Virus record (IMG/VR): IMGVR_UViG_3300009155_000048
Span: 1 to 64,000 of that record
Source: a virus
DNA: 64,000 nucleotides
Strand: one strand, 5' to 3'
The position numbers were made by a program, and so were the translations under genes. The notes under the pieces are model-generated. The model was not told the origin of the DNA, ran no database searches, and was given only the letters and a program-made list of their open reading frames with translations. Each line of letters starts with the position of its first letter. Positions within the stretch are counted from its first letter, which is position 1. Of this stretch, positions 739 through 62,337 are shown one piece after another.

Positions 739-1212
739 TTACTTTAGAAGAGTGTCTATTTTTACATCACGTAAATATGACACTCTTTCTCTTTTGTATG
801 TATCTATAGCATTTCCCCAATTTGGATTTATAGAAGGACTTGCACTATTTAAAGTTAATTGATCATAATATAATCTTAATAAATTACTACCTTCTATAAT
901 TAAATCCTCACCATGTAAATCCATTTGTTGTAAAAATTGACCAGTAGCATTATAAACCACAACAACAACTGAAAACATATCTCTTTTACAACCCTTTAAA
1001 TTATAGTCAAAGAAAACATCATCATATTGAATCTCAATATACTTTTTTTGTGGAGTAGGACCATACATTCTTTTTGACTCTTTATAAGAACTAGTGTTTA
1101 CTTCTTCTTTAAGATTCATATCAATAATAGAATCATCTTCTATTACCATAAAATATGGTTCACTAAAAAGATAAACTTCATAGTAATATTCTGATCTTGG
1201 CTTACTTTGCAT
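739..1212 (-). CDS. Degenerate tail-tube (gp19)-like protein with C-terminal RDVKIDTLLK tail
   Basis: YKESKRMYG.P and G.K.D...VVVYNATG segments resemble jumbo-phage tail tube proteins (from memory); shared tail motif. Confidence 0.45.
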   Translation of the reverse strand: MQSKPRSEYYYEVYLFSEPYFMVIEDDSIIDMNLKEEVNTSSYKESKRMYGPTPQKKYIEIQYDDVFFDYNLKGCKRDMFSVVVVVYNATGQFLQQMDLHGEDLIIEGSNLLRLYYDQLTLNSASPSINPNWGNAIDTYKRERVSYLRDVKIDTLLK

Positions 1213-1408
1213 TTTCTAAAACCTTTTTAATTTTCTTAGACCTTCTTTGTTGTTTGGTTTCTAAGATACCATATCTACTTTTAAGAACACTTTTGGGATT
1301 GAAATTTGAGTCTATTACAATAGGCTCGGATTCTTTAATAATATATGGAGCCCAAACATATCCAGGTTCAATACCTTTTCCTTTTTTACCAATTAAAACT
1401 CTATCCAT
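1202..1408 (-). CDS. Mini-protein: C-terminal fragment of major capsid protein plus basic tail
   Basis: 17/49 ungapped identities to MCP segment NRIVIGRK...RSRYAVAE encoded in this window. Confidence 0.8.
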   Translation of the reverse strand: MDRVLIGKKGKGIEPGYVWAPYIIKESEPIVIDSNFNPKSVLKSRYGILETKQQRRSKKIKKVLENAK

Positions 1409-1429
1409 ATTTTATTATATGAAAAAAGA

Positions 1430-1738
1430 TTAGTAAAGATACTTTCTACCACTCTCATTATAATCTTTGAGATTATTAACGGTTGTATCTAAAAGTGATA
1501 AAGTATCTGATATTTTAGAATTAATAGATTCTAAGCTAGCTACTGAATCATCAATCTGGTCGTTAGACTTTTTAGATTTACTTCTAAAGTTAGATAATTC
1601 ATTTGTTAAAGATATAATCTCTTCTTTTTTAGCATCAATTGTTGATGATATGTTAGCTAACTGATTAATAATTTCAGAAACTCTATCATTTGAGATATCT
1701 ACGGTTTCATCTGCTTCAAAGAATTTTCTAATCTTCAT
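1430..1738 (-). CDS. Coiled-coil hypothetical protein with capsid-targeting-like N-terminus
   Basis: MKIRKFFEA start; heptad pattern. Confidence 0.6.
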   Translation of the reverse strand: MKIRKFFEADETVDISNDRVSEIINQLANISSTIDAKKEEIISLTNELSNFRSKSKKSNDQIDDSVASLESINSKISDTLSLLDTTVNNLKDYNESGRKYLY

Positions 1739-1777
1739 AATTAAGGTTTAATTTTTAATATATAGTATATATAAAAT

Positions 1778-2458
1778 ATGAAACGCAACAAACTAATATT
1801 AGAATTTACTGAGTTCAATGCTCAAAGAATGAATCCAGATTCAGCACAAATGGCTGTACAAGTTGATAATCCACAATTATCAGTCAATGCTTTTGATAGA
1901 CATGAAGACGCAATTAGAGCTGGTGTTTCTAGAATTAATAATATCTTGCATTCTTTATCAAATAGTGCTTCATTTAGAACATTGAAATCTAAATTTGCCT
2001 TAGAAGAACAAAAAATTACATCATTAAAAGTACTTAGAATTGTAAGTGCTGATGATGTTAACTATGATATTTATGTTAGTTTTGTAATTGATGATGAAGA
2101 ATATTTTGGTGTTATTGAAAATATTTTAACAAATGATACCATATTCAAATCTGAAGTATTTAAAGACTTTGACTTAGTTCAAAGTAAAGAATGGATTATC
2201 AGAACAAAGGGATTAATTATTAAAACACTTAAAAAGTGGTTACAACCCGAAGAAGGAAAATATACCTTAATTAATGATTATATCATTTGTTACTCAGTTG
2301 ATACCGGTAGAATGGTTCGTTTAGAAAAGGGAACTAAAGTAGAATTAGTAAGAGCATATGATAATAAGATTGTTATAAAATATAACAATGATTATTATAA
2401 CTTAGTTAATAATAATTTTATCTATTTTAATTATTGGTTTGAGAAGGTGATAATTTGA
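1778..2458 (+). CDS. Hypothetical protein (possible virion protein)
   Basis: 226-aa ORF downstream of TAATATATA motif; ILEFTEFN N-terminus. Confidence 0.6.
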   Translation: MKRNKLILEFTEFNAQRMNPDSAQMAVQVDNPQLSVNAFDRHEDAIRAGVSRINNILHSLSNSASFRTLKSKFALEEQKITSLKVLRIVSADDVNYDIYVSFVIDDEEYFGVIENILTNDTIFKSEVFKDFDLVQSKEWIIRTKGLIIKTLKKWLQPEEGKYTLINDYIICYSVDTGRMVRLEKGTKVELVRAYDNKIVIKYNNDYYNLVNNNFIYFNYWFEKVII

Positions 2459-2474
2459 GATGAGTTATTTATAT

Positions 2475-4130
2475 TTAACCAAAAAACTCTCCACCTCCAG
2501 ATCCACTACCTACAGTAGTCTCTCCAGCAACATAAGTTATACTTCCCGAAAAAGTAATATTATCTCTAGAAACATCTCTATATCTTGTTCCATTATTTCC
2601 ACCAGAATCAACATATGGTACAAATTGAACATAAAAATCACCGGTATGTGAAACTAATCCAGCTGTATCTACAAATACAGCCATTGCCGCAGGTCCATAA
2701 ACTGCATTTCCACTCCAACCACCAGAACCAACACCATATGATGTGTTTACTGGTCTGAATCTTTGTCCACTCAATCTTATTACCCATCCGTAGAAAGATC
2801 CAGTACTACCATTATATTGAATAGGGTTTCCTCTTGTTATAACAATAGATAAATGAACTAATGCACCAACTCTATACGCCTTTGCTGTATATGTTATCCC
2901 ACCGCTACTGAAACTATCTGTTAGTATTCCGAAAGTACCATCCACTGAATAATAAAGATAAGTAAGAGGTGAACTTAAATTAGTAACATCTTCATAATTA
3001 GTAATGCTTCCATTAGTTGATACTATATTACTCGTAGTACTAATTGTACCACTTACCAAAACATTAGTATTAAAAGTAGAAGTGTTACTATTAATAACTG
3101 CTTTAGTTGAACTATTTATTAAAAAATTATAACTACTTGCTGATGCTGATATAGAGTTAGAACTAGCACTAAATTGAGCACCACCTCCGGTAAATATAAA
3201 TTTATCACTTATTGTATTTACTGAAGTAACATTGGAAGTAGATCTAATTGACCCACTAACATCTAACTTATAAGATGGTGATGGTAAGGTAGTATTGATA
3301 CCAACATTTCCAGTACTTGATAAATACAAAGAATCCACAAAAGTTCCAGCTGGATCATTTGGCTTTCTATTTAAGAATCTTATCTCACCATCAGCCTGTC
3401 CGATTCTAGAAGAACCTTTAGTTGAGTCAAAAACAAAGTCATCACTATCATAATACCAGTTATATGCGATAATTGCATTTCCACCTTTGTGGATTGTTAA
3501 TGGCAAAGATTGACCAACATATGAAACCGGATAAGAACCAATCTGAATAGATTCTTTTGGATTATTTGTTCCAAAACCAATCGCACCAGATGGTGTTATT
3601 CTCATTCTTTCTGCAACCGAAACGGCAGAACCATCACCAGTACCAAATGCTAAACCACCTTCATTTCCATTTGTATCCGATGGATTATATGATATATAAG
3701 GACCATCTGTCCAAGATCCACCCGATGTTTTCCATCTAAACTGATTTTTAACTTCAACTGTTGTCCAATCAGGAGAACCAGTAGTAGTGTGTCTATTAAA
3801 TTGTGAAGATAATGATATATTACTACTTCCACTAGTAGATGATAAAAATAAAATATTTGACTTATTATTAAGTGTAGCACCAACAACACCAGTATCAACA
3901 TATGTATCACCAACTAAGCTACCGCTACCACCATAAATACCACCAGACTCTTGTGACCAAGTTGCACCATCCCAAAGATATGTTTTCTTGTTATCAGTTT
4001 GATAAACTTTCATACCTTCATATTTCCAAGTAATGCTAGACCTTGACACGGAACTAGTTGCTACTAATCTTGAATCAAGTGGAATGCTTTGATTTACGTC
4101 ATAATTGGAATTTATTAATATACCAGCCAT
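2475..4130 (-). CDS. Tail fibre/virion appendage-like protein
   Basis: S/T/G-rich; GAIGFGTNNP and GNVGINTTLP..YKLDVSGSI repeats typical of fibre proteins. Confidence 0.65.
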   Translation of the reverse strand: MAGILINSNYDVNQSIPLDSRLVATSSVSRSSITWKYEGMKVYQTDNKKTYLWDGATWSQESGGIYGGSGSLVGDTYVDTGVVGATLNNKSNILFLSSTSGSSNISLSSQFNRHTTTGSPDWTTVEVKNQFRWKTSGGSWTDGPYISYNPSDTNGNEGGLAFGTGDGSAVSVAERMRITPSGAIGFGTNNPKESIQIGSYPVSYVGQSLPLTIHKGGNAIIAYNWYYDSDDFVFDSTKGSSRIGQADGEIRFLNRKPNDPAGTFVDSLYLSSTGNVGINTTLPSPSYKLDVSGSIRSTSNVTSVNTISDKFIFTGGGAQFSASSNSISASASSYNFLINSSTKAVINSNTSTFNTNVLVSGTISTTSNIVSTNGSITNYEDVTNLSSPLTYLYYSVDGTFGILTDSFSSGGITYTAKAYRVGALVHLSIVITRGNPIQYNGSTGSFYGWVIRLSGQRFRPVNTSYGVGSGGWSGNAVYGPAAMAVFVDTAGLVSHTGDFYVQFVPYVDSGGNNGTRYRDVSRDNITFSGSITYVAGETTVGSGSGGGEFFG

Positions 4131-4145
4131 TTTTAATATTTATTT

Positions 4146-6781: not shown

Positions 6782-6810
6782 AAAATCCTCAAATTTCTTT
6801 GAGGATTCTT
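6781..6810. terminator. Bidirectional intrinsic terminator-like hairpin
   Basis: AATCCTCAAA-tttc-TTTGAGGATT between convergent genes. Confidence 0.65.
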
Positions 6811-6944
6811 TCTATCTTCCACTTTCTACTTTTAATTTTCCACTTAGTGAACTCTTTACTATAAATTTGTTCATCATAGATTCGACCACCGTGTGTTTTT
6901 TGATTAAACTGAACAATCACACCTTCAAGGATATATCTATCCAT
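6789..6944 (-). CDS. Unannotated 51-aa mini-protein: N-terminal fragment of prohead protease plus SRKWKIERILKEI tail
   Basis: MDRYILEGVIVQFNQKTHGGRIY... has 9/21 identities to gp21 DYILGGIFTEFGVKNRNERIY; TAATG coupling to upstream gene. Confidence 0.75.
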   Translation of the reverse strand: MDRYILEGVIVQFNQKTHGGRIYDEQIYSKEFTKWKIKSRKWKIERILKEI

Positions 6945-7342
6945 TAACTAAATAAGAATTCAATTTTAATTAAATCTTTGATTTTAGCAGTTGTTAAATT
7001 TAATTCATCAAAGTTTACCTTTTCATATTCAATAGTATTTTCAATACTCATTAAATCAAACATTTCTTTGTTAAAGGATTCAACATCTGAAATTCTAACA
7101 GCTCCAGGAATTGAATTTCCATTTTCATCTTGAGCCTGAATTGGATTTCCTTGCTCATCTTTTTCTAAATACTTATCAAAAATCTTCTTTTCTAATTTTA
7201 ATTTGTCCTCAACTAAAGAAGAAACCTCTTTGATAATTCTCATAAGTCTGAAAGCCAACTTTGCATTGATGTCCATATCAATCAACTCATTCAAAGCTGC
7301 AACTGTTTCATTATTCAATTGTGAATTTTTAATTACAATCAT
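6944..7342 (-). CDS. Hypothetical protein
   Basis: 132-aa ORF coupled to downstream mini-gene. Confidence 0.6.
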   Translation of the reverse strand: MIVIKNSQLNNETVAALNELIDMDINAKLAFRLMRIIKEVSSLVEDKLKLEKKIFDKYLEKDEQGNPIQAQDENGNSIPGAVRISDVESFNKEMFDLMSIENTIEYEKVNFDELNLTTAKIKDLIKIEFLFS

Positions 7343-8958: not shown

Positions 8959-9192
8959 GATAAAGATCATGACTATTATGATGGTGAATTAATAAAAGAT
9001 AATTTTAATCTAAATTATAATAATGAAAATTATCCAACAATAGATCATAAGATCTCTATTCAACATGGATTCTTAAATGAAATTGACCCTTCTATTATAG
9101 GAGGTTTGGAGAACTTATGTATAACAAAAAGGTCAATTAACATATACAAGAATAAATTAACAGAAGAGCAATTTATAAGGAAATTGAATTAA
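8959..9192 (+). pseudogene. Start-less C-terminal remnant of an HNH homing endonuclease
   Basis: DYYDGELIKDNF...YPTIDHKISIQHGF...ENLCITKRSIN; preceded by in-frame TAA, no ATG. Confidence 0.7.
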
Positions 9193-10624
9193 TCTGATTA
9201 ATAAGTGCATTACGATCCTCCTTTAAAGCAGACATGACATCAAATACTCTATCGGAAAATCCAGCTAAACAGTAAATTTGATTTTGCGGCATTTGTAGTG
9301 TGCCAAGTCCAGCTAAATCAAAGCTGAATATGTGTGGGTTACAATTAAACTTCGACTTGTAAGAATTCAATTGAATTAAAGGACTATCATGTCCAATAAA
9401 AGATTGCATATCAGAAAGAATTATCATATTATCATAAGCTTTATTTGCCTTAACAAAAACATCTCTTAGGTTTGTACCACCACCACTGAATCGGAAACTG
9501 TTTCTAATTGTAAGAATAGAATCCATTGGATTGTATTGCTTATAGTTAGCTGATGTTGCGAATGTCATAACATCACAGTTGTTAGCTTTTGCTAACATAG
9601 CTCCGAAAAGTGATGCAATCTCGGATGGACGACCACTCATAGAACCCGATACATCAAGTACAACAAGAGTTTCACCATCAAATTTTGGCACATTCATACC
9701 AGAGATATCAAGAGCTTGGTTAATAGCAGTTAGTACTTTTCTAACATCAGAAGATGCACCCAACTTAGAAATTTCTTCATAAGCTGTTACAAAACGGAAA
9801 GGAAGAACTTTACTTCTTGAAATCATATATTCATCAGTCAATAAATCACAAGCTGCTGGAATAGCTTGAGGTGCTTGATTGATTATATTTCTCAAGTTTC
9901 TCAAAAGAGCAAAGTAACCAATCTTCTTAGTAGAGATTAACTCAACCCAAGCATCAGACTTCAATTTAGCCAAATCTCCTTCATCAGAAGCTTGTTGACC
10001 AGCTTGTGATAACATTGACTCCCAAGTTTGAGTATTCTTCAACTTATCATTAACAAGTGCGTTAAGAGCTGACTTGTTTCTTTCAGTTGGTACTGGATGA
10101 ACTAAGTTAACGATATCTACCAACTTAACTTCTTTGTTTTCGCCTTTATACTTAGCCAATTGATAAGCATCAAACTTATCAAAAGCTTTAGCAAAACCTT
10201 TCTTCAAAGAGTTTGGAAACTTAGGATGATTCTTATCAGTCTTGTTTGCCAAGTAATAAGACATGATTTCAGTCATATCATCAACACGACTAACAACTTT
10301 ATCATAAAAGTTTTTACCCCATTCTTTACCAGAAAGATCAGAAGCTAATTCACCGGCAAGTGCGTGTGTAATACTTCTCATACCAAATTCATCACGAGCA
10401 AAGATTGCGGCTTTAGCAGCAAATTCTTTGTTACTCATAGATTTAATTTGTTTCTTCAAGTCTTCCAATGTTTGGTTGGAATCACGATAGAATTGGTTAT
10501 TAACAAATGAAGTCAATAACAGAGAAACAAGAGCTAATTCATTAGACTCTTTATAAGCCTCACCACCAGCGTGGTTTGTAGTTTTTGTCTTTGGTTTTAC
10601 TACTGTTGCATTAAATTTTGACAT
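9173..10624 (-). CDS. rsr: Ro60/TROVE-domain RNA-binding protein with C-terminal vWA domain
   Basis: TNHAGGEAY, YQLAKY, TWE, ALLRNLRN, PFRF, DVSGSM (MIDAS), GGTN, ILSDMQ. Confidence 0.93.
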   Translation of the reverse strand: MSKFNATVVKPKTKTTNHAGGEAYKESNELALVSLLLTSFVNNQFYRDSNQTLEDLKKQIKSMSNKEFAAKAAIFARDEFGMRSITHALAGELASDLSGKEWGKNFYDKVVSRVDDMTEIMSYYLANKTDKNHPKFPNSLKKGFAKAFDKFDAYQLAKYKGENKEVKLVDIVNLVHPVPTERNKSALNALVNDKLKNTQTWESMLSQAGQQASDEGDLAKLKSDAWVELISTKKIGYFALLRNLRNIINQAPQAIPAACDLLTDEYMISRSKVLPFRFVTAYEEISKLGASSDVRKVLTAINQALDISGMNVPKFDGETLVVLDVSGSMSGRPSEIASLFGAMLAKANNCDVMTFATSANYKQYNPMDSILTIRNSFRFSGGGTNLRDVFVKANKAYDNMIILSDMQSFIGHDSPLIQLNSYKSKFNCNPHIFSFDLAGLGTLQMPQNQIYCLAGFSDRVFDVMSALKEDRNALINQINSISL

Positions 10625-12097: not shown

Positions 12098-13147
12098 TTA
12101 TAGACCATATTTTCTCCAACCAGACCAACCACAATTCTTATAAGATTTTTCCGGTTTTTGTGGATATCTCAAGTCAGGATTTTCTTTAGCATATTTTCTA
12201 TAACTAGTTATTGTATTTATAACTCCACTTTTTACTAAATCAGGTACAATAATTTCAAACTCTTCATAAGATATACACTTTCTTAGTTTCTCTCTGTGTT
12301 CTAATGTAAATACTCTATTTTTTAGACTTTCTGACAACTTCATCTTAGTTTCATCAGATAATTTTAGTTTATCAGATCCTTTATTCAACTTCTTATAGTT
12401 AGTATCTTTTAACTTCTGTCTATGTTCATCTGTAAATAATTCACCATTATCACTTTTATTTTTAAGAGATTTTGATATTCTATCATACCATTCTTGCTTA
12501 AGATCATCTGGTTTATTTATTCTTGCATCATTCATTCTTTTAACCATGAAATTTATTTCAACTTCTGAATAATTTGAAAACTGCTCTAATGTCTTCTCTC
12601 TTATTTTCTCTACGGTCTCTACACTTCGTTTAATACCAAACATAGGGTTTAGTTCTCCTCTATTACCAAAATTAGAATTTAATGTACCTACTCTTTTAGA
12701 AGCTTTCTCTGATAGTTTCTGTTTTAACTCAATTGATCTTTCAACTCCTACAATTTCTTCTAGTTTCTTTCCTTTGTTATGGTGTTCACCAATCCAAGTT
12801 ACACCACCATCACCACCATCAGTTGTGTTTAACAGCGGTCCTAAACCATCACAAGATTTACCTATTAGTCTAATTGTTGAAATCTCATAACTATCATAAT
12901 TTTCTTTTGTTAATCCTTCAATTATCTTAACTATTTTTGGTTCAAACCCATCATTTAATATACTTTTAATTTTAGATATTATTAAATTATTCTTTCCTTT
13001 TCTACTACCATTTGCAACTCTAAGATGTGTTAAGTATCTATCATTAACACCTTTACCAATATAAAAAGGTTCATACTCAAAATGGAAATCTCCAAATGAA
13101 TATGAACCTTTTTTTCTTGTGTCTAAATAAACATAAATATAATACAT
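12098..13147 (-). CDS. GIY-YIG (LEM3-like) homing endonuclease with NUMOD3-like repeats
   Basis: YYIYVYLD...PFYIGKG...R, NTTDGGDG, NPMFGIKRS.ET; sits downstream of nrdA. Confidence 0.8.
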   Translation of the reverse strand: MYYIYVYLDTRKKGSYSFGDFHFEYEPFYIGKGVNDRYLTHLRVANGSRKGKNNLIISKIKSILNDGFEPKIVKIIEGLTKENYDSYEISTIRLIGKSCDGLGPLLNTTDGGDGGVTWIGEHHNKGKKLEEIVGVERSIELKQKLSEKASKRVGTLNSNFGNRGELNPMFGIKRSVETVEKIREKTLEQFSNYSEVEINFMVKRMNDARINKPDDLKQEWYDRISKSLKNKSDNGELFTDEHRQKLKDTNYKKLNKGSDKLKLSDETKMKLSESLKNRVFTLEHREKLRKCISYEEFEIIVPDLVKSGVINTITSYRKYAKENPDLRYPQKPEKSYKNCGWSGWRKYGL

Positions 13148-18331: not shown

Positions 18332-18706
18332 TTAAGAAAATATCCAATTAAAATTTGGATATTTTTTTGTAATATGTGACCAATATCCACCACTAACATC
18401 ATTATCAACAATAATAGTGTCACCATCTTTAAGATTTTGTAAAATCACTTCTACAACTTTTGTAGCAATACCCTTTTGATTAGTAGAATTAACTATAGAT
18501 TTGATTTCTATAGCATCTTCATGAAATTTAAGTAAGAGTCCAAGAATAGAATCTTTTGAAATCAAAGAAACTTGTGGCCTGTTGAGTTTGTCTAATTCAG
18601 TAGAGGCCCATAAAAAGTTTTTAGTCACTTTAATATGTGGAAAATATGTAGATAACTCATTTGATATTTGAGTCATTAAGTTAAATTTATTGAATTCTAA
18701 TATCAT
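18332..18706 (-). CDS. Putative GNAT-fold protein
   Basis: IKSIVNSTNQKGIATKVV resembles acetyl-CoA binding Q/RxxGxA motif. Confidence 0.45.
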   Translation of the reverse strand: MILEFNKFNLMTQISNELSTYFPHIKVTKNFLWASTELDKLNRPQVSLISKDSILGLLLKFHEDAIEIKSIVNSTNQKGIATKVVEVILQNLKDGDTIIVDNDVSGGYWSHITKKYPNFNWIFS

Positions 18707-30565: not shown

Positions 30566-30619
30566 AATTTTAAGTGTATTGATTTTAATATATATATTAA
30601 AATTATCCACCGAGAAACT

Positions 30620-34875: not shown

Positions 34876-35309
34876 ATAGATATAGAAGGATTGATTTTAT
34901 CAACTCTTTTTTCATGCCTACCACCCTCAAATTCCGTGTCTAAAAATACCTCTACTATTCCAATTGCTTCTTCAATTGAAATAAATCTAGCAGGTAAACA
35001 CAAAACATTAGCATTATTATGTTGTCTAGCTAGTGAAGCAATCTCACTATTCCAACAAAGAGCAGCTCTAATATCTCTCCATTTATTCGCAGTCATACAA
35101 ATACCATTTCCGGTACCACAGATTAGAATACCAATAACAGATTCTTCATCTAAAATTGAAGCAGTAACAGCATGTGCATAATCTGGATAATCTACACTTT
35201 CAGTAGATTCAGGTCCAAAATCAATTACAGGGACTCCTTGTTCGGAAATCCAATTAATTAAGGCTTCTTTCATTTCATAACCAGCATGGTCAGATCCAAT
35301 TGCAATCAT
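34872..35309 (-). CDS. rpiB: Ribose-5-phosphate isomerase B
   Basis: GSDHAG, VDYPD, CGTGNG, ARQHNNANVL, FEGGRH. Confidence 0.95.
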   Translation of the reverse strand: MIAIGSDHAGYEMKEALINWISEQGVPVIDFGPESTESVDYPDYAHAVTASILDEESVIGILICGTGNGICMTANKWRDIRAALCWNSEIASLARQHNNANVLCLPARFISIEEAIGIVEVFLDTEFEGGRHEKRVDKINPSISI

Positions 35310-36004
35310 AATAATTCATCTAATTTTCTATCTCTATTAATTTGGACATATTTAGCATTATATTCATTCACATAGTGAAGATTAATAAAGTTATTTTTAT
35401 TTAAAACAATTTGATAATTTAATTGTGATATAAATTTCGGCCCACTCAACGAAGTGGTGTTAATATTTGAAGCCACCGGTTCATCAATTTCATAATTATA
35501 ATTAAATGAGTCTTCTTTACCACAAATGATTGTCTTATCATCCCATCGCTTGAAAGCATCTATATAAACAGATATACCTCCAATTTCACCTAATTTATAA
35601 AAAGTATTACTATTACTTACCTTATTTATAGATTCATTGTGGAATAAAACAGATTCTTGAGCAAACATTCCAATTTGAGATGAACAAATGATAAAATCAA
35701 AGTTATTTTCTTTTAGATAATGATAGAGTACACCCATACCATCCGATTCGGATAAATTCATAACATCTAAGAATTCCTCTGATGTAGATTTCATTTCCTT
35801 AAATATTTCTTTATGAAATGATTGAGACAATTCTTGTATCAATAAAGAATTATATTTCGCATCAATATCTAATTTTAGATTAAATGCGTTTTGAAGTGAT
35901 ACCATTTCATCTCTAGTGATAGACATAGATACTTGTATTTTCTGTGATACCGGGAGTCTTTTATCCAACACTCCTAATTTTAATAATTCTGAATTAATTT
36001 GCAT
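35306..36004 (-). CDS. Truncated major-capsid paralog (C-terminal half) with RDRKLDELL tail
   Basis: SLLIQELSQSFHKEI and YKLGEIGGISVYID align to MCP SILVNELSQTISKQI and YPVGQIGDIQIYVD. Confidence 0.75.
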   Translation of the reverse strand: MQINSELLKLGVLDKRLPVSQKIQVSMSITRDEMVSLQNAFNLKLDIDAKYNSLLIQELSQSFHKEIFKEMKSTSEEFLDVMNLSESDGMGVLYHYLKENNFDFIICSSQIGMFAQESVLFHNESINKVSNSNTFYKLGEIGGISVYIDAFKRWDDKTIICGKEDSFNYNYEIDEPVASNINTTSLSGPKFISQLNYQIVLNKNNFINLHYVNEYNAKYVQINRDRKLDELL

Positions 36005-42243: not shown

Positions 42244-43554
42244 ATGTCTAAACTAATGAAACTTAACGAAATTCAAGACGAGTCTGTATTAAATGATATC
42301 TTTAATAATGAGATAATAATATTTGAAGATATACAAGGTAGTAAAATATATGTAAACTGGAATGGTTCCAATTTTACAATTAAATCAAAATCATTATCAT
42401 CGGATCCTATCAATATGATTGATTTAGCTATGCAAAATTATTATAATAATGCTATTAGTTTTTTTAATAATCTTGATAACAGAGTTAAAGGATTGATTAA
42501 TAAAAAATGGTGGTTTTGTTTTGAATTTTTCCCAGATAATCAACCAGCAAATATTGAATACAATAGAGTTCCTAAAAATAATTTAGTCTTAACTTCTATC
42601 TACAAAGGTAACAAATTTGATTATACCATTGATGAATTAGAAGAATATGCTAGATTACTTGATGTTGATGTAATTCCGGTAATTTTCAAAGGCAAACTAA
42701 ATGAAAAAGTTATAGAAGCAATTAAATATTTCTTAAACACAAGTGAGTCAGACTTAGAATATGTATTTGGCGAGAAGTCATTTTCTTACTTCTTCTATAA
42801 AATATTAAGTCCACAAACTCAAAATTCATTTTTGATGAATGAAGACTTTCAAAAAAATGTTGAGAAGTTAATAATAAGAATTGATGGTAAAGATGTATCA
42901 TTTGAAATTTTGAATCCATTATATAAAAGAATATCGGACACAAACTCAACAGACTTTGTTGAAATTTACACACTTATATTAGTTAATTTCTTGAATTTCT
43001 GTCAATCAATAGACTTTAATCAAATTAAAGTAAAGGGAAATAAAAGAGATGAAGTTTATATCTATTTAATTTGTAAGTTATTCAATATGTACTTATCGGA
43101 AGTAAAAGATGATATTGCTAATTTTCAATTTACTGTACCCGAATTCTTTGATAAAGATAAATTTAGAATTAACACAGAGTTGATTCCAAATAAAATGACT
43201 AAACAATTCATTTCAGAGGATAAAAAGTTTGAATATATTTTCAAAGTAATTTTAGGTAGTTTCAATAAGAAGAGAAAGAAACCAATTGGCGTATTCACAG
43301 AAGGAACAATTAACATATTTAACAATTTTGTACAAATGATACAAGAAAAAATTGATGAATTCTTTAACAAAAAAAGTGAGATTGAATTAACCAGAAGTGG
43401 ACTAATTGACTTCTCACAATGGTTTGATGTTAAATATGATGTGGATGCGGAAGAAAATGTTTATCCAGATGTATATACCGAATTAGAAAAAGGTAAGGAA
43501 AAAGATAAAAAAGGAACAAAGGGTGGAAAGTTTGGAGAATATGAAAAGAAATAA
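42244..43554 (+). CDS. RNA-ligase (Rnl2)-like fold protein lacking the motif I lysine
   Basis: FEDIQGS (motif I-like), FCFEFF, LLDVDVIPVIFKG, VEKLIIR. Confidence 0.55.
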   Translation: MSKLMKLNEIQDESVLNDIFNNEIIIFEDIQGSKIYVNWNGSNFTIKSKSLSSDPINMIDLAMQNYYNNAISFFNNLDNRVKGLINKKWWFCFEFFPDNQPANIEYNRVPKNNLVLTSIYKGNKFDYTIDELEEYARLLDVDVIPVIFKGKLNEKVIEAIKYFLNTSESDLEYVFGEKSFSYFFYKILSPQTQNSFLMNEDFQKNVEKLIIRIDGKDVSFEILNPLYKRISDTNSTDFVEIYTLILVNFLNFCQSIDFNQIKVKGNKRDEVYIYLICKLFNMYLSEVKDDIANFQFTVPEFFDKDKFRINTELIPNKMTKQFISEDKKFEYIFKVILGSFNKKRKKPIGVFTEGTINIFNNFVQMIQEKIDEFFNKKSEIELTRSGLIDFSQWFDVKYDVDAEENVYPDVYTELEKGKEKDKKGTKGGKFGEYEKK

Positions 43555-43714
43555 TATAGGTGGAGTATTTAAGGTTAATGCAACGGTAACAAAAACTATG
43601 ATTGAAGACTTAGAGAAACAACACGGGATTGATTTAGTCCAAAGATTGGAGAGTTTACTTGTTTTATTAACAGTTAGAAGACACCGAATTGAAAAAATAT
43701 TATCTAAAATTTAA
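43541..43714 (+). CDS. Mini-protein: major-capsid spine-helix fragment plus RRHRIEKILSKI tail
   Basis: 13/32 ungapped identities to MCP IEVSSALRRTEIEDIKANTGMDIVQKMESILV. Confidence 0.78.
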   Translation: MKRNNIGGVFKVNATVTKTMIEDLEKQHGIDLVQRLESLLVLLTVRRHRIEKILSKI

Positions 43715-43845
43715 TGCCATCTGCTCTTATATCAAAACCAAATAATTGGAGTATTTTATTGAAATATAAGAGAAGAGAAAAGTTGACTAAAATCTTAAAT
43801 AAAATATTAAAAACAATTTCGGTAAATTACATTATAATTGTATGA
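43714..43845 (+). CDS. Unannotated 43-aa peptide with RREKLTKIL motif
   Basis: TAATG and ATGA coupling on both sides; MPSALISKPNNWSILLKYKRREKLTKILNKIL... Confidence 0.55.
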   Translation: MPSALISKPNNWSILLKYKRREKLTKILNKILKTISVNYIIIV

Positions 43846-46717: not shown

Positions 46718-47278
46718 ATGATTGATTTATCCAAAGGACTAAGTTTATTTATATCAAATGATAACCAAATTGAACTATGTTTATCCAGTCTGACTAACTT
46801 TTTATCAGAAGAATACACAGTTTTAACTTTCTCTTTTGGCAAAGATAAATTTGGATTATCACCAACAGAAGATAACTTTAAAGAACAAGTTAAAAAGAAT
46901 CTCTTTAGAGTTGAAATGCTAGTAGTTCACCTTAACTATAAATTAAAGAATTATACTGACTTTTTCAATTTTTTAACAAGTTTAAATCTTATAGTCTTTA
47001 TAGTGACACCACGATCTAAATCAGATATTTTGTTAGATAACTCCGGTAGTTACATTAGAAACTTCTATGAGGTTAAAGATAATCCAGATTATTTAACATC
47101 AAGTCTTAAAAGGTTTTCAAATCTAACAATTACAAATATTGATTTGGATTCTTTACCCGATAAATATTTAATCAAAAATATTAATACTGATGAAGAGTTC
47201 ACAGTAAGTCAATATAAGAAATCTTATATTAGAGATAAGAAAATTGACATTTTTTTAGATGATAATGACCAGGATTAA
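46718..47278 (+). CDS. Hypothetical protein (possibly degenerate RecA/DnaB fold) with IRDKKIDIFL tail
   Basis: Tail motif clear; fold resemblance weak. Confidence 0.55.
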   Translation: MIDLSKGLSLFISNDNQIELCLSSLTNFLSEEYTVLTFSFGKDKFGLSPTEDNFKEQVKKNLFRVEMLVVHLNYKLKNYTDFFNFLTSLNLIVFIVTPRSKSDILLDNSGSYIRNFYEVKDNPDYLTSSLKRFSNLTITNIDLDSLPDKYLIKNINTDEEFTVSQYKKSYIRDKKIDIFLDDNDQD

Positions 47279-49806: not shown

Positions 49807-50601
49807 ATGCCAGAGATTTCGGAAGTTAGAATAATGTCTGATTTTATTAATCAGAATTCCAAGAACAAATTTAATAAAGCCTTTCACGTTGAAAAAGGAA
49901 ATATTCCTACACAATTCCTTGATAAAGAATTTGATATAAAATCTGATTCTAGAGGAAAAGAACTATTACTATTCATTGATGATTTACCTATTCATGTCTT
50001 TATGGGAATGAGTGGCAATTGGAAATATACTCCAACTGAAAAATGGAATGAAACTAAATTCACTAGGCTTAGACTAGATGACGAAACCGGACACTCACTA
50101 TTATTATATGGTGGGTTTATGGGACCAAAATACTCGGTTGGTAAACCATTCACCGGAACCAAAAGAGGACCAGATCCAACTAAAGAGTTTGATGATTTCA
50201 AATCAAATATCTATAAGAATATAGACAATAAAGCTTTTGATAAACCTATCTGCGAAACTTTACTTAATCAAGAGTATTTTAATGGAATTGGCAACTATAT
50301 CAGAAGCACCTTAATATTCTATGCTGATGTGAATCCATTTGAAAAAGCAAGAACTATATTACAAAATTCTGATAGAGTACTTAATTTATGTAAGGATGTT
50401 CCTCTTAAATCTTATGAATTGAACGGTGGGCAACTCAAAGATTGGAAATCACCATTTGATACCGACTCTACTGAATTTAAGAAATGGGTATTTTATCAAA
50501 AGGGATTGGCTTGTACCGATAAAACCGGTAGAACATTCTGGTTTGATGAGAAATGGAAGGACTATTGTCCATATGAAATTAAGAAAAAACGTGGAAAATA
50601 A
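49807..50601 (+). CDS. Fpg/Nei-family DNA glycosylase; probable start ATG 49807
   Basis: MPE N-terminus, RGKEL, GMSG, GPDP, LLNQEYFNGIGNY (H2TH). Confidence 0.88.
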   Translation: MPEISEVRIMSDFINQNSKNKFNKAFHVEKGNIPTQFLDKEFDIKSDSRGKELLLFIDDLPIHVFMGMSGNWKYTPTEKWNETKFTRLRLDDETGHSLLLYGGFMGPKYSVGKPFTGTKRGPDPTKEFDDFKSNIYKNIDNKAFDKPICETLLNQEYFNGIGNYIRSTLIFYADVNPFEKARTILQNSDRVLNLCKDVPLKSYELNGGQLKDWKSPFDTDSTEFKKWVFYQKGLACTDKTGRTFWFDEKWKDYCPYEIKKKRGK

Positions 50602-51061
50602 CTTTATTTATAGTGATAGAGGTGAGGGTAAAACTGAATTTATAACAAGATTAGCCAATGATTTATATAGAAAAGGTGGTTATAAAATAGATTTTTATTC
50701 ACTAACATCAGAGAGTTTACCGAATTTAGAAAGAGGAATTTCATATGATATTTACCCAAATAATATTGTAAATAGAAATTACATTTTAGACCTCAAAAAA
50801 GAAAAGATAAAAGCAGGTAAACTAGATATTCTTTTCATAGATGATATAGATTACTTAGATAATTGGGATGATATATTATCACTAAATTGTGATAAATTTA
50901 TCACTGTTGATATATTGGAAGAAAGAAATTACCCAAAAAGAAGCTGTAATATGGTAAAATTAAAAGGAAACTATAATCTTTTTCACTTACCTGATATAGA
51001 ATATAATAGCTTCTTAAAACCTTATTTAAGAGAGAAAAAATTAGACATATTATTAAAATGA
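50591..51061 (+). CDS. Small P-loop (helicase-like) protein with LREKKLDILLK tail; probable start GTG 50591
   Basis: SDRGEGKT Walker A, LFIDD Walker B; tail motif. Confidence 0.65.
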   Translation: MENNFIYSDRGEGKTEFITRLANDLYRKGGYKIDFYSLTSESLPNLERGISYDIYPNNIVNRNYILDLKKEKIKAGKLDILFIDDIDYLDNWDDILSLNCDKFITVDILEERNYPKRSCNMVKLKGNYNLFHLPDIEYNSFLKPYLREKKLDILLK

Positions 51062-52344: not shown

Positions 52345-54096
52345 TTAGTTAAGTAATCCAGGAGTATCAGACACTTTAATTGTCATATACTGCTTTTGAG
52401 GATACCAACCCACTTCAGCAACTGCGTATCTAGATCTTAACAACATACGTGGAGCGAATGTAGCTTCAGAGATGATACTGATTGACTGAGCCATTAAGTA
52501 AGGTACGAAGATGATACCTGGTTGATCAGGATTGTTCTTTCTACCAATAACGATACGGTTATCGTTATACTTCATGTAAGGGTCAACATAGATTTGGATA
52601 TCACCGATTTGACCAACTGGATACAATTGACCAGAACCGTTGATTTTAGATTTAGTTGGATTAATAGTATATCCAGCGACATCCATTAAAGCTGCAGCTA
52701 AACCTCCGTTAGTTACTGCGAATTGTGCAGGACCAACACGACCTTCTGTTGCAATATAGTTAGAAGCGTGAACCATCTTAGTGATCAACTTACGTTGAAC
52801 AGCGTGTGTAGTTTCACCACCAACTTGAGTTTGAGTGTAAAGAGTATCTAAGTCAAAAATAGTTGGACTAGAGATGTTATTGCTATAAGTAGCACCAGAT
52901 GCTGGAGCTGAAGATCTGTTCAAGTCACCCATTTCAAAGATTTTAGATACAATTTGTTTAGAAATTGTTTGAGACAATTCGTTAACAAGGATAGATTCCA
53001 TTTTTTGAACGATATCCATACCAGTGTTAGCTTTGATGTCTTCAATTTCAGTTCTTCTAAGAGCTGAAGATACTTCAATAGTACCAACCGCGATAGACTT
53101 AGTAGAAACTTTTGGTCCAATTACACCAGCATAAGTCAAATCATCTTCAGCACGACTCATTGGGTATCTACCATTCTGAGAGTTTGTAGAGAAGTTTGTA
53201 GAGAAACCTGGTAATTGATCTTCTAATGCAGAAATCATAGTAACAGTTAAGTTAGAAGTACTTGAGAAAGTAAGACCAGGAATAGCTGTTAATTGAGACT
53301 GGATTGTAGCAGAAGGAGTAAATGTATTTTGAGTTTGGTCAAAAGCTGCTGCTGCTGGGTTATAAACGTTAGCAATTGTTTGTGAACCAATAGTAGCATT
53401 TGCTTGTCTAAATGCTCTGAAGATAGGAAGACCATCGATACGAGAGTAACCTAAGAATTCAAGAACGTTAGCTTTAGAACCACTAATAGATGTACCTGTT
53501 GAAACAGATGCAGCATAGTTACCTAAAGTAAAGTAAGCCTTAGTACCAGTAGCACTTTGGAAACCACCAACTGTTAAAACGATATCAGTTGAAGAAATTG
53601 CAGTTGAAACTTTAGTACCAAACGCACCACTTTGTAACATACCAGCTGTATCAGTTGAGTTAGTTGATACGATTTTAAATACTTGAGGTGCACCATATGT
53701 AGTATCAACATCATCATATTGGAAGTCAATATACAATAAGTCTAATTTTGGACCTGGTGAAGGTTTTACAGCAACTAAATCTAAACCGATTGTTTGAGCT
53801 GCGATTTTCATAGCAACTGGTAATAAGTTTTGACCTAAGTCACCAGAACCAGCCGAACCTGAGTTACTTGACCAGTTAGTACCAAGTGTAGTACCTGATA
53901 AAGTTGATGGTTGAGGAGATGTAACTGCACCCATACCTTGGATTGTTGCGTTTACATACGCATTTTCATTGATAGAGTGGAACTCTGCGTATTCTGACAT
54001 CCAATCAAGTCTGTCTTCACCAGCAACGCCCATGTTCTCTAATACTGGAGACCACTTCTTCAATGCTTTTTGTTTGTCTATTCTAATGTGTGACAT
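52345..54096 (-). CDS. Major capsid protein (T4 gp23-like)
   Basis: KKWSPVLE, IAAQTIGLDLVAVKP, VDPY, PY...F.PRMLLRSRY; follows protease gene. Confidence 0.92.
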   Translation of the reverse strand: MSHIRIDKQKALKKWSPVLENMGVAGEDRLDWMSEYAEFHSINENAYVNATIQGMGAVTSPQPSTLSGTTLGTNWSSNSGSAGSGDLGQNLLPVAMKIAAQTIGLDLVAVKPSPGPKLDLLYIDFQYDDVDTTYGAPQVFKIVSTNSTDTAGMLQSGAFGTKVSTAISSTDIVLTVGGFQSATGTKAYFTLGNYAASVSTGTSISGSKANVLEFLGYSRIDGLPIFRAFRQANATIGSQTIANVYNPAAAAFDQTQNTFTPSATIQSQLTAIPGLTFSSTSNLTVTMISALEDQLPGFSTNFSTNSQNGRYPMSRAEDDLTYAGVIGPKVSTKSIAVGTIEVSSALRRTEIEDIKANTGMDIVQKMESILVNELSQTISKQIVSKIFEMGDLNRSSAPASGATYSNNISSPTIFDLDTLYTQTQVGGETTHAVQRKLITKMVHASNYIATEGRVGPAQFAVTNGGLAAALMDVAGYTINPTKSKINGSGQLYPVGQIGDIQIYVDPYMKYNDNRIVIGRKNNPDQPGIIFVPYLMAQSISIISEATFAPRMLLRSRYAVAEVGWYPQKQYMTIKVSDTPGLLN

Positions 54097-56413: not shown

Positions 56414-56863
56414 ATGAAAAGAGTAAAAGTTATAATTTTTCAAAAAAATGAAGATTCTTTGGATGAAATTGTTCAATTTTTATCTAAATCGGAAAACTCA
56501 AAAGAATTTTATTTAAAAATGAATAGAGATAAATTCATAAATGAAATTTTATCTATTTCCGATCCAATTCATCAATGGATGCCATTTTTAGAGTCACTAT
56601 CACCAATAAAACTATATGACAAATATGGATCCACTTATCAGTCAAAATATAGAGAAGTACTTAACATATCAACAATATCACACCATATTAAAAGTATAGT
56701 TGTAGAAAACAACACTCTATATGGAATTATTGATATACTAGACACACCAATAGGTGGACGAATTCAATCATTAGATGCAGAACAGATGGTACTAAATCCC
56801 ATATATAATACAGGTGAAATCATAACATTTGATATAGATTTTAATATAAGGGAAGCAGCATGA
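56414..56863 (+). CDS. Catalytically dead prohead-protease paralog
   Basis: SHHIK...YGIIDILDTPIG...SL...TFDI aligns to gp21; lacks DHP His and SSR Ser. Confidence 0.65.
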   Translation: MKRVKVIIFQKNEDSLDEIVQFLSKSENSKEFYLKMNRDKFINEILSISDPIHQWMPFLESLSPIKLYDKYGSTYQSKYREVLNISTISHHIKSIVVENNTLYGIIDILDTPIGGRIQSLDAEQMVLNPIYNTGEIITFDIDFNIREAA

Positions 56864-57270
56864 TACTAACTAGAGAAATTATAGTAAAAATAAATGAGTC
56901 CAACTTTTCATATTATGAAGAGTTAGGATATGATGTTGCTATTGGAGAAGCTCTAATAATTCCAGTTGAATTATTATCAACAGGAAGCCACTATAAAATA
57001 GATTGTAAATGTGATGGATGTAGTATAGTTAAGGAAGTCATATTTAAGAATTATGTTAAATATGATAATAAATGGGGCGAGTACTATTGTAGAAAGTGTT
57101 CAGAGAAGAAAAGAAAAGAAACTCTTAAAGAAAATTATGGCGTTGAATATCCAATTCAAAACAAAGAAATAAAGAAAAGGATTAAGAAAACTATGATTGA
57201 TAAGTTTGGAGTAGATAACCCAACAAAATCAAAAGAAATTATTTCTAAAAGAAAAAAAGTCTCAAATTAA
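56860..57270 (+). CDS. Homing-endonuclease-type zinc/DNA-binding module without nuclease domain
   Basis: N-terminus paralogous to 37189-38100; YGVEYP/FGVDNP repeats. Confidence 0.65.
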   Translation: MILTREIIVKINESNFSYYEELGYDVAIGEALIIPVELLSTGSHYKIDCKCDGCSIVKEVIFKNYVKYDNKWGEYYCRKCSEKKRKETLKENYGVEYPIQNKEIKKRIKKTMIDKFGVDNPTKSKEIISKRKKVSN

Positions 57271-59744: not shown

Positions 59745-59788
59745 AGGATATTAATTTATAGATATATATTAAAAAATAACATTAAGGT

Positions 59789-60298: not shown

Positions 60299-60632
60299 TA
60301 ATAAGAAAGAAAACACTCATAATAGTGTTTATACCATCATATAAATTTATAGCAATATTTCTCTTGGTTGATAAGATAACATACTTAAATAGACCAAGAA
60401 AAATAATACCAAAGAAATATATCCACAAATGTGAGAATAAACCAATCGGTAACCAAATTAAATAGAATATCTTAAATAGATAGAAAAATAAATTTGGGAT
60501 AGCACTTTTAATATCCAAATTTGGATCAAATTTAGCAAAAATTTTATTACGATTGGTTAGTTGATATACCTCAACCACAATAAAAACAAGTGAAAGAGCA
60601 TAGAAAAAATTAGACAAAAGGTTCATCTTCAA
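60270..60632 (-). CDS. Small multi-pass membrane protein
   Basis: Three to four hydrophobic segments. Confidence 0.6.
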   Translation of the reverse strand: MKMNLLSNFFYALSLVFIVVEVYQLTNRNKIFAKFDPNLDIKSAIPNLFFYLFKIFYLIWLPIGLFSHLWIYFFGIIFLGLFKYVILSTKRNIAINLYDGINTIMSVFFLIIILIQGLFQ

Positions 60633-60924
60633 AAATAGTTTTTATTTCTCCTAGATTTTTTAAATTTGTGAGAGAATTTTGCATTAGTCTTATACTACCA
60701 GATTTACTTACTTCATTAAAAATCTCATCAGATACAGACACTTCAATCGGATCACCCACAATTCTGTCGTATTCATGAGGAATAGCATCTGAATCTCTAC
60801 TTTCATAAGTCTTTCTTATGTAAGATTTATATTCATCCTTTGTTAAATGTAGTGAACAACCATCAGGACGAATTCCCCATCCACGTTCAGACTCTTCCCA
60901 ATACTGTAAATAAACGCTTTTCAT
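60610..60924 (-). CDS. Hypothetical phage protein
   Basis: WEESERGWGIRPDGCSLH. Confidence 0.6.
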   Translation of the reverse strand: MKSVYLQYWEESERGWGIRPDGCSLHLTKDEYKSYIRKTYESRDSDAIPHEYDRIVGDPIEVSVSDEIFNEVSKSGSIRLMQNSLTNLKNLGEIKTIFEDEPFV

Positions 60925-61001
60925 ACTTTTGTGATATTTATAGTGATATTAATTAAACTCTTAAAGTTTAGCAAATATAATAAATAAAAATTAATTATAC
61001 A

Positions 61002-62153
61002 ATGAGAAAAATAACATTTCATTTAGAGTATATTTGGTTAGACGGTAATTATCCTCAACAAATACGTTCAAAAACAAAAATAGTGGAGAAAGAAATCACC
61101 GACGATATTATTGAAGATATTCAAAATAGTGAAACCGGAGATGTACGCGAACCATTCTATAATGATTGGAAAAAAAATCCAAAATCATTACCAATGTGGA
61201 ACTTTGATGGATCTTCCACTGGCCAAGCCGAAACTTCTAAATCAGAATTGTTATTACATCCAGTAAATATTTTCATGGATCCAGTTAAACACAATGGATT
61301 TATAGTTATTTCTGAAGTATATAATACCGACATGACACCACATCATACTAATAAAAGAGCCAAAATGGTTGAAATGGTTGAAAAGTATGACCAAGAAACA
61401 ATGTGGGGATGGGAGGCTGAGTATTTCATTTATGATAAAAAAACTAATAAACCACTTGGATGGCCAACAGAAGGATATCCTAGACCACAAGGACCATTCT
61501 ATTGTGCAGTTGGTGGTAATAATGTTGATGGACGCGAATTTGTCGAAGAACACACAACATTATGTGAAATTACAGGTTTGAAAATTTCTGGAATCAATGC
61601 TGAAGTTGCTCTTGGTCAATGGGAATATCAAATTGGACCAGTTTATGCAATAGATGGTGCTGACCAAATGTGGATTTCTAGATTTTTATTACAAAGATTG
61701 TCTGAAAAATATGGATATTTTATTGAATTAGAACCTAAACCATATAAAGGAAATGATTGGAATGGATCGGGAATGCACGTTAACTTCTCAACTAAAGAAA
61801 TGAGAGATGATTTGAAAAACAAGAAAAAGTTAGTTATTGAAGCTTGTGAAAAATTAGGACAAAAAGTAGAAGAACATATTGCAGTATATGGACCAAACAA
61901 TGAAGCTCGTTTAACTGGATCAAATGAAACTTGTTCAATTAAAGAATTTAGATATGGAATTGGAGATAGAACAGCTTCAATTCGTATTCCTTCTTCAATT
62001 GAAGACAAAACAACTCCTGGATACTTAGAAGATAGAAGACCAGCTTCAAATGGTGATCCATATGAAATTGTAACTAGAATGGTCAAAACCATCTGTGGTG
62101 GAAAGTTAGATAAAAAATCTGATAAGAAAAAGAAGAAAGAACAAGAAGCATAA
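61002..62153 (+). CDS. glnII: Glutamine synthetase type II
   Basis: EYIWLDG, WNFDGSSTGQA, PQGPFYC, GINAEV..GQWEYQIGP, DWNGSGMH, DRTASIRIP, YLEDRRPASN.DPY. Confidence 0.95.
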   Translation: MRKITFHLEYIWLDGNYPQQIRSKTKIVEKEITDDIIEDIQNSETGDVREPFYNDWKKNPKSLPMWNFDGSSTGQAETSKSELLLHPVNIFMDPVKHNGFIVISEVYNTDMTPHHTNKRAKMVEMVEKYDQETMWGWEAEYFIYDKKTNKPLGWPTEGYPRPQGPFYCAVGGNNVDGREFVEEHTTLCEITGLKISGINAEVALGQWEYQIGPVYAIDGADQMWISRFLLQRLSEKYGYFIELEPKPYKGNDWNGSGMHVNFSTKEMRDDLKNKKKLVIEACEKLGQKVEEHIAVYGPNNEARLTGSNETCSIKEFRYGIGDRTASIRIPSSIEDKTTPGYLEDRRPASNGDPYEIVTRMVKTICGGKLDKKSDKKKKKEQEA

Positions 62154-62155
62154 AA

Positions 62156-62187
62156 AGAAAAACCTCTCAAATTTGAGAGGTTTTTTT
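62156..62187. terminator. Bidirectional terminator
   Basis: AAAACCTCTCAA/TTGAGAGGTTTT. Confidence 0.75.
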
Positions 62188-62337
62188 AATTTTATTAAAT
62201 ATTTTATTTATTTTTCTAATTCTAACTTCTTGTTTTGTTTCATATTGAATACTAACTTTAGCATCAACAAAAGAAGGTTGTGATACAACATCTTGTATAA
62301 AGTCAGACCAATTATATTGTGCGAAGTTCTTGGACAT
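62167..62337 (-). CDS. Unannotated 56-aa mini-protein with ETKQEVRIRKINKIF tail
   Basis: TAATG-coupled to sigma gene; ETKQ..R..KI.K[IV] matches 1202-1408. Confidence 0.65.
   Translation of the reverse strand: MSKNFAQYNWSDFIQDVVSQPSFVDAKVSIQYETKQEVRIRKINKIFNKIKKTSQI

Follow-up and report, generated by a model that had tools for sequence, protein, structure and literature searches.

What could ten small, scattered phage genes have in common? The question arises from a 64-kb stretch of viral DNA (hereafter the window), which is the beginning of IMG/VR virus record IMGVR_UViG_3300009155_000048, a single virus DNA of 107,134 bp with a G+C content of ~30% (29–30%). A prediction made from the letters of the window had pointed to about ten genes that share a basic-hydrophobic helix, usually at the C terminus, on bodies that often looked like degenerate pieces of the phage's own essential proteins, and had proposed a decoy or adaptor system. 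We find that the tail is a portable C-terminal helix selected as a peptide, that it sits on non-homologous bodies and is kept across orthologs, and that its sequence is clade specific.

A tail shared by small proteins across a clade

The 107-kb contig is estimated by CheckV to represent 19% of its genome; gene calling (code 11) gives 113 genes, 94.6% coding, and a proteome rich in lysine, isoleucine and leucine. Its major capsid protein (MCP), g065, is of the T4 Gp23 type (Pfam Gp23, E 1.8e-27) and is 64% identical to the MCPs of LR745206.1 and LR756502.1, two uncultured phages of 635–642 kb, and 30% identical to those of Lak phages. These genomes belong to the Mahaphage clade, for which Bacteroidetes are the predicted hosts (PMC7162821). 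For comparison, LR745206.1 (635 kb) was taken in full, with 943 genes called, and LR756502.1 was covered by a 100-kb sample of 177 proteins.

A strict form of the tail, R-x-x-K-[IL]-x-x-[ILV]-[LF], occurs seven times in the 33,777 residues of the 113 contig proteins, each time within the last 25 residues of a protein (7/7). The original prediction had named shuffled C termini as the comparison on which the motif could fall; when each C-terminal 25-mer was shuffled in 2000 trials, the mean was 0.05 matches and the maximum 2, against the seven observed. The enrichment is larger in LR745206.1, where 85 of 96 matches lie in the last 25 residues and shuffling predicts 0.6, and 18 of the 177 sampled LR756502.1 proteins are tagged. 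Complete relatives have ~85–100 tagged proteins, and the tag is concentrated on short ones, being present on ~15% of proteins of ≤150 amino acids (aa) versus <3% of larger proteins. The tail is therefore far more widespread than the window alone shows: it is a portable helix, defined at the level of the peptide, that small accessory proteins carry throughout the clade.

To define membership beyond the strict pattern, we used a hidden Markov model (HMM) trained only on LR745206.1 tails and then run on the contig proteins. Eight proteins (g075, g003, g056, g002, g051, g062, g009 and g039) score 9.1–13.9 bits, and the next-best contig protein scores 3.9 bits. All ten predicted peptides are indeed present at the genes named for them, one of which had been placed at 50591 and actually spans 50573–51061 (g062). 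As for the count of about ten carriers, eight of the ten stand by the HMM, the copy in g050 is decayed and the internal site in g067 is no member of the family. The extended consensus covers about 15 residues, h-[ST]-K-x-x-h-R-[DE]-x-K-[IL]-x-x-[IL]-[LF].

Several observations place the signal in the protein. Among 84 LR745206.1 instances aligned on the motif, the 30 bases before it and the 90 bases after it hold no information, and the arginine, lysine, isoleucine and leucine codons within it are used as they are genome-wide (AGA accounts for 71% of motif arginine codons vs 77% in the genome). The number of residues between motif and stop codon varies from 0 to 16, mostly 0–7 with a mode of 1–2 and rarely up to 16. 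With information confined to the motif codons and synonymous usage equal to that of the genome, we rejected a DNA-level explanation of the tail. We found no published description of such a shared tag in the literature on described tags or on Mahaphage proteome features.

Bodies of the carriers

The carriers in the window, together with the capsid gene and one gene that was predicted as a carrier, are as follows.

g002, 739..1212, minus strand, 157 aa: Hcp/tail-tube-like beta-barrel (residues 1–127) and C-terminal helix (132–156); tag RDVKIDTLL at 745–771; HMM 11.5 bits
g003, 1202..1408, minus strand, 68 aa: copy of MCP residues 513–561; tag RSKKIKKVL at 1217–1243; HMM 13.1 bits; 11-base overlap with g002
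g009, 6789..6944, minus strand, 51 aa: weak likeness to a prohead-protease N terminus; tag RKWKIERIL at 6801–6827; HMM 10.2 bits; coupled to upstream g010
g039, 35306..36004, minus strand, 232 aa: compact HK97-fold capsid paralog; tag RDRKLDELL at 35309–35335, at the very C terminus; in an operon with Dam, DUF1653 and RpiB
g050, 43541..43714, plus strand, 57 aa: copy of MCP residues 338–371; decayed tag RRHRIEKIL at 43676–43702; HMM 0.3 bits
g051, 43714..43845, plus strand, 43 aa: tag RREKLTKIL at 43771–43797, 15 residues from the stop; HMM 11.1 bits
g056, 46718..47278, plus strand, 186 aa: alpha/beta body without Walker A; tag RDKKIDIFL at 47231–47257; HMM 13.1 bits
g062, 50573..51061, plus strand, 162 aa: small P-loop NTPase; tag REKKLDILL at 51029–51055; HMM 10.3 bits; between Fpg/Nei-like and thymidylate synthase genes
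g075, 62167..62337, minus strand, 56 aa: tag RIRKINKIF at 62197–62223; HMM 13.9 bits; coupled to upstream g076
g065, 52345..54096, minus strand, 583 aa: MCP, parent of the g003, g039 and g050 bodies; untagged
g067, 56414..56863, plus strand, 149 aa: not a tag carrier; internal RDKFINEIL, HMM 3.3 bits; adjoins a homing-endonuclease-like gene; possible weak protease-like piece

The three bodies predicted to be capsid segments all match the g065 MCP significantly by BLASTP. The g003 body is 35% identical to MCP residues 513–561 (E 1.7e-10) and also matches Pfam Gp23 (PF07068) at 25.7 bits against a cut-off of 24.4, over profile positions 301–354 only; g050 matches MCP residues 338–371 (E 6.5e-7), with a Pfam Gp23 E value of 0.011 that is below the cut-off. 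For g039 the BLASTP match covers MCP residues 340–521 (E 1.8e-7), with no Pfam match, and the protein as a whole aligns to residues 340–583, so that the N-terminal 340 residues of the MCP are absent. Its AlphaFold2 model, with a predicted local distance difference test score (pLDDT) of 83.8, has an HK97 fold with spine helix and A and P domains, and Foldseek matches it to T4 gp23/gp24 and other capsids with probability 1.0 and TMq up to 0.62. Like T4 gp24 and other HK97-fold MCP paralogs, g039 is a relative of its phage's own Gp23-type MCP, and it differs from them in its length of only 232 aa, the missing N-terminal part, the tag at its end and its place in a Dam/RpiB operon. Because g039, g003 and g050 each cover only parts of the MCP, the latter two being too short for an HK97 fold, they are derivatives rather than capsid subunits in the usual sense. 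An intron/exon origin of the capsid pieces was rejected, since the window has no Rfam families and no tRNAs.

The predicted tail-tube likeness of g002 holds at the level of the fold, with moderate strength. The AlphaFold2 model (pLDDT 83.8) is a beta-barrel with a long C-terminal helix, and residues 1–127 give VIA Z values of 8.0–9.3 over 110–121 aligned residues, with all of the top 50 matches (50/50) being Hcp or tail-tube proteins; these values lie near the tool's stated noise band, which is why we call the support moderate. Foldseek matches to Hcp and tube proteins have E values of 3e-3 or weaker and probabilities of 0.9–1.0. No Pfam or PHROG family matches g002, and the T4 gp19 family (PF06841) is unmatched across the whole contig.

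The other bodies are more varied. That g062 contains a P-loop is borne out by Walker A (GEGKT) and Walker B (DILFIDD) motifs that are invariant in nine homologs, with GRT replacing GKT in its LR745206.1 ortholog, r0341; for the more specific proposal of helicase kinship, the similarity seen is generic, with a weak best PDB profile match to a reverse-gyrase helicase domain (E 0.027) and hhalign probabilities of 2.3% to the phage DinG-like helicase and 0.1% to the DnaB-like one. The structural neighbors of g056 in the ESM Atlas are RecA/DnaB_C/KaiC-like (TM-score 0.59–0.62), which we treat as a lead only; sequence profiles show no relation to the phage DnaB-like helicase, so a copy of that protein is unsupported. 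The prohead-protease ancestry proposed for g009 and g067 is weak, the matches falling short of significance (g009: phrog_207 E 0.018 and E 0.82 to the N-domain profile of the phage's own protease; g067: 0.0027 and 2.6). g067 has no C-terminal tail. g051 and g075 are too small for classification. The lack of homology among the bodies makes the tail a portable module; several bodies are cut-down versions of phage core folds, namely the HK97 capsid core, the capsid C-terminal strands and the tube fold.

How general is the pairing of a self-derived fragment with the tail? The combination recurs in LR745206.1, where tagged proteins include a capsid-core paralog (r0314), a capsid C-terminal piece (r0373) and a segment of scaffold repeats from the protease-scaffold protein (r0645), and where a capsid-helix piece (r0612) and a protease-like piece (r0301) carry variant tails. 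Yet ancestry in core or head proteins applies to only ~5–6 of the ~85–100 tagged proteins in that genome; a Pfam search with ten of the largest tagged proteins matched no family, and three mini-proteins derived from the capsid N terminus (r0417, r0793 and r0177) are without the tail. The predicted architecture of variable body and constant, selected tail is supported. Self-fragment proteins have no special claim to the tail, however; among its carriers, bodies of the capsid, tube and P-loop types are a minority, albeit a genuine and conserved one.

Some other genes of the contig also stand out. A DinG-like helicase is broken into three open reading frames (ORFs) at 22752–25697 (minus strand): a ResIII domain with an N-terminal Hint/intein part (24861–25697), a TnsA-like endonuclease in the middle (24020–24889) and an intein C-terminal part with Helicase_C_2 (22752–24023), an arrangement that is a split intein or else an intein that encloses an endonuclease gene. 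Homing-endonuclease-like genes lie at 12098–13147, 37189–38100 and 56860–57270 and at contig positions 86500–88188; g016 is of the GIY-YIG plus NUMOD3 type, and g042, g068 and g103 form a family with a common N-terminal domain and DUF7487 repeats, with g068 between the head protease and portal genes. Unusual cargo for a phage comprises a TROVE (Ro60-like) plus VWA protein (9173–10624, minus strand), an NFACT-R RNA-binding domain protein (41688–42080, minus strand) and a glutamine-synthetase-like protein (61002–62153, plus strand).

Conservation and lineage-specific tags

The carriers are selected genes rather than debris, as had been predicted: they are intact, keep their positions and evolve under purifying selection. 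Neutral evolution, which had been listed among the observations that would speak against the system, is not seen for g039, whose ratio of nonsynonymous to synonymous substitution rates (dN/dS) is 0.28 in the comparison with L040, where the copy is 96% identical (95% by tblastn), and 0.26 in that with a copy at 54% identity; its neighbors have values of 0.03–0.15. The tail is invariant in the 29 homologs of g039, which reach down to 51% identity, and in the 23 homologs of g002; 14 homologs were found for g062, and in the 12 homologs of g056, whose identities go as low as 24%, no block is better conserved than the tail. In three families, conservation of the tail columns is 0.87, 0.92 and 0.80 versus 0.75, 0.71 and 0.79 for the body. 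The predicted translational coupling is also real, with eight of the nine carriers overlapping a neighbor by 1 to 29 bases or directly abutting it; the exception is g056, with gaps of 94 and 44 bases.

Comparison with LR745206.1 shows how quickly the bodies change around the constant tail. Positional orthologs of g075, g003, g039 and g062 are 24–37% identical with the tail kept, whereas flanking genes are 47–80% identical; g075, for example, corresponds to r0293 (37%, with neighbors at 47–80%), g003 to r0373 and g062 to r0341. The carriers are thus under purifying selection yet fast evolving, and diverge much faster than their neighbors. The g050 ortholog, r0832, has a canonical tail despite the decayed copy in g050, and g051 is identical in L040. 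At the g050/g051 slot in a contig of a more distant relative (L041, IMGVR_UViG_3300042887_005324, positions 1955–3630) there are genes for a RuBisCO-large-subunit-like protein (409 aa) and a glycerophosphodiester-phosphodiesterase-like protein (147 aa) and no capsid gene, and we therefore rejected the idea that g050 and g051 are remnants of a larger capsid paralog.

An unbiased search, genome by genome, for patterns enriched at C termini revealed that the tag itself differs between lineages. LR745206.1 and LR756502.1 share the R..K[IL] tag; LR756504.1, with an MCP 50% identical, has a shifted variant, E-[YH]-R-K-x-I-I-x-x-L-L; LR756501.1 (MCP 48% identical) has the unrelated tag D-P-Y-G-E-E-x-W; and LR756500.1 (MCP 35% identical) has N-A-D-D-F-G-[FL]. 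Within each genome, the carriers all have that genome's version, as a co-evolving reader or mutual binding of the tags would predict. Coding density with code 11 is 57% in positions 1–50000 of LR756504.1 (L016) and 80–83% in LR756500.1 (L020/L021), compared with 92–94% elsewhere, and the low values may reflect reassigned stop codons or very short genes there.

A second tag lies at the other end of a different set of proteins. The N-terminal pattern M-[KR]-[YHNK]-[LI]-K, typically M-K-Y-L-K-x-F-x-E (M-K-[YH]-[LI]-K-x-F-x-E), is present on 10 contig proteins and 62 LR745206.1 proteins, and we take it to resemble the T4 capsid-targeting sequence (CTS). The contig genes with this tag are:

21932–22123, in the window
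22165–22458, in the window
41688–42080, in the window
g080, g081, g084, g085, g091, g100 and g106, beyond the window

Only one protein has both tags, versus ~5.6 expected, and this near-exclusive distribution over largely separate proteins points to at least two distinct addressing systems.

Possible functions of the tail

What, then, might the C-terminal tail do? We lean, with a little more than even confidence, toward a docking or address label that brings many unrelated carriers onto one shared, lineage-specific partner. In one Mahaphage-type clade, the tail marks a broad set of accessory proteins that are small and evolve fast; its conserved face (R, K, I, I/L and L) would plug into a groove on a single putative partner, and unrelated bodies would thereby be brought to the same machine or place. 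Some of these bodies were recruited from phage core genes (HK97 capsid core, capsid C-terminal strands, tail-tube fold and P-loop). That there is one reader for all tails is a step that we infer; it does not belong to the points demonstrated above.

Our best guess for this reader, albeit an unlikely one, is a phage-encoded Clp-type unfoldase or protease, for which the tail would serve as a degradation or adaptor handle. Tag-positive genomes have two to three ClpP genes together with ClpX (LR756504.1) or with a 649-aa two-ring Clp-type AAA+ protein, whose V-G-F loop is presumably of the ClpP-docking kind. Directly downstream of orthologous ClpP genes in three genomes is a gene for a tagged protein, each time with an unrelated body, and in LR756501.1 the gene directly after the Clp-type AAA+ gene carries that lineage's own tag (DPYGEEIW). 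The tagged loci next to Clp genes are:

L025:851-2154
L026:1048-2160
L027:1154-2187
L033:1161-3336

The label also has familiar counterparts in the degrons and adaptor tails of AAA+ proteases (ssrA, the MuA C terminus and the SspB XB peptide on the ClpX N-domain), which are likewise short, partly basic-hydrophobic C-terminal peptides that deliver unrelated proteins to one unfoldase, and the phages here encode ClpP, ClpX or ClpC-like proteins.

Several findings weigh against the docking label or against this choice of reader. Over ~15 Clp-family loci inspected, tagged immediate neighbors number 4 of ~30, which is not above the base rate of 10–15%, and LR756501.1 is tagged yet without ClpP; on these two grounds we keep the Clp idea as a guess only. 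No ClpP gene is present on the 107-kb contig, which covers only 19% of the genome by the CheckV estimate. The motif stands at no fixed distance from the C terminus (0–16 residues) and hence not at the free carboxylate, unlike classical ssrA-type degrons, and the tail helix of g039 is modeled with moderate confidence (pLDDT 57–66). Among the candidates considered, no partner protein of the tail was identified.

Two of these candidates were set aside. The sliding clamp deserved attention because the clamp-binding C termini of the T4 family (gp43, gp33 and gp55) and PCNA-interacting peptide (PIP) boxes are also docking motifs with hydrophobic residues at i, i+3 and i+4, in the former at the C terminus with an L-D/x-F-L-F-type hydrophobic ending. 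The tails studied here end in ..K-I-x-x-I-L-x, whereas endings like those of T4-family clamp-binding proteins sit on g010 (6944–7342, ..KIEFLFS) and g031 (28001–28525, minus strand, 174 aa, ..KLDFFDIDF), which makes the clamp an unlikely reader; nor would 85 small accessory proteins be likely clamp clients. Adjoining g031 is a family B DNA polymerase ORF (26416–27906, minus strand, 496 aa) with the exonuclease domain and only the start of the polymerase domain, so that the gene looks split. Also dropped as readers were the paralogs g021, g032 and g036, which gave no PDB or PHROG match. These three large proteins (526–750 aa; 18703–20955, 28553–30610 and 33105–34685) match nothing in Pfam, PHROG or PDB apart from a DnaJ/BSD2-type cysteine-rich zinc finger at the end of g036, and LR745206.1 has at least eight further paralogs of them.

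In the counter-defence account that goes back to the original prediction, the bodies that copy core folds (capsid, tube and ATPase) could bind host sensors of those folds or the structural proteins of co-infecting phages, with the tail delivering whatever is caught to a shared sink, for example a protease. This account, compatible with the data but in our view quite improbable, draws on the conserved and selected HK97 core of g039 without its N-terminal half, the tube fold of g002, the capsid segments copied in g003 and g050 and the matching tagged capsid, scaffold and protease pieces of LR745206.1 (r0314, r0373, r0612, r0645 and r0301), as well as on the fast divergence of the bodies, as an arms race would predict. 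Bacterial Avs sensors have moreover been reported to recognize capsid, tail-tube and RecA-fold ATPase cores (10.64898/2026.01.04.697583). Set against this are the small share of tagged LR745206.1 proteins with core-protein ancestry (~5–6 of ~85–100) and the absence of the tag from other capsid-derived mini-proteins, and we found no phage decoys of capsid proteins of this kind in the literature. A broader, bait-and-handle version, in which core-fold copies and other fast-evolving binders capture host sensors or rival assembly intermediates and the helix hands the catch to a phage machine such as ClpC-like/ClpP, seems to us a remoter prospect than either this account or the head-cargo signal discussed next. 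Its logic would be that of F-box, SOCS-box and poxvirus ankyrin-PRANC proteins, in which a variable target-binding body is joined to a constant C-terminal docking module; their modules are folded domains of 40–50 residues that bind known ligase subunits, whereas the tail is a 15-residue helix without homology to them. Alternatively, the tail could target proteins to the scaffold or inner capsid surface for packaging and injection, in the manner of the internal proteins of T4 or the cargo peptides of encapsulins. Head genes are the source of several carriers, and a basic helix could pair with the long acidic repeats, each of 14 residues, in the protease-scaffold protein g066. The T4 CTS follows the same logic of a short portable peptide on variable bodies: borne by unrelated, fast-evolving small proteins in plastic loci (IPI–III and Alt), it is read by one assembly partner and removed by the prohead protease after an L-x-E site. 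But the CTS is N-terminal, while the helical, basic-hydrophobic tail sits at the C terminus; a separate CTS-like tag at the N terminus is already present in these genomes, rarely alongside the C-terminal one, which makes head targeting a less likely job for the tail; and tagged genes share operons with genes for replication, nucleotide metabolism and transcription, not with late structural genes. Such a head-cargo signal is improbable, slightly more so than the routing of captured proteins to a common sink.

Two further accounts dispense with a reader or with function altogether. Tails might associate with each other, as a condensate or as mixed helical bundles. The conserved hydrophobic positions of an amphipathic helix would allow this, and the tags of all carriers shift jointly between lineages, which mutual binding would require; the hydrophobic residues of the motif, however, lack a regular heptad spacing, and the conserved face has an arginine at its center, and we think such hub-less association very unlikely. 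Least probable of all is that there is no functional unit, the tails reflecting a composition rich in K, I and L or a nucleic-acid (DNA or RNA) signal where genes end, or the small genes being debris of recombination. The genome is indeed rich in these residues at 29–30% G+C, g050 and g051 occupy a plastic position at which L041 has unrelated genes, and several homing-endonuclease genes occur in the window alongside a helicase gene that contains an intein. Yet shuffled C termini give 0.05 matches against 7 in the contig and 0.6 against 85 in LR745206.1, DNA conservation stops at the motif codons with normal synonymous usage, the tails are invariant in families of 24–97% identity, dN/dS is ~0.27 for g039, and the window yielded neither introns nor RNA families. 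A lack of function is thus largely refuted for the family as a whole, and could still hold for g050 alone.

Returning to the docking label, its tail peptide of 15 residues offers an experimental handle, usable as bait for its reader. The mini-capsid g039 and the tube-like g002 show that cut-down, fast-evolving copies of a phage's own core folds are kept under selection, so that structural mimicry against fold-sensing immunity becomes a directly testable question; if the bait-and-handle account were true, the system would amount to a counterpart, in prokaryotic viruses, of F-box or PRANC adaptors. More broadly, huge phages have small genes without a known function by the hundred, and a shared, selected tag on about one-tenth of proteins, and on one-seventh of the small ones, sorts a large block of this dark matter into one functional class.

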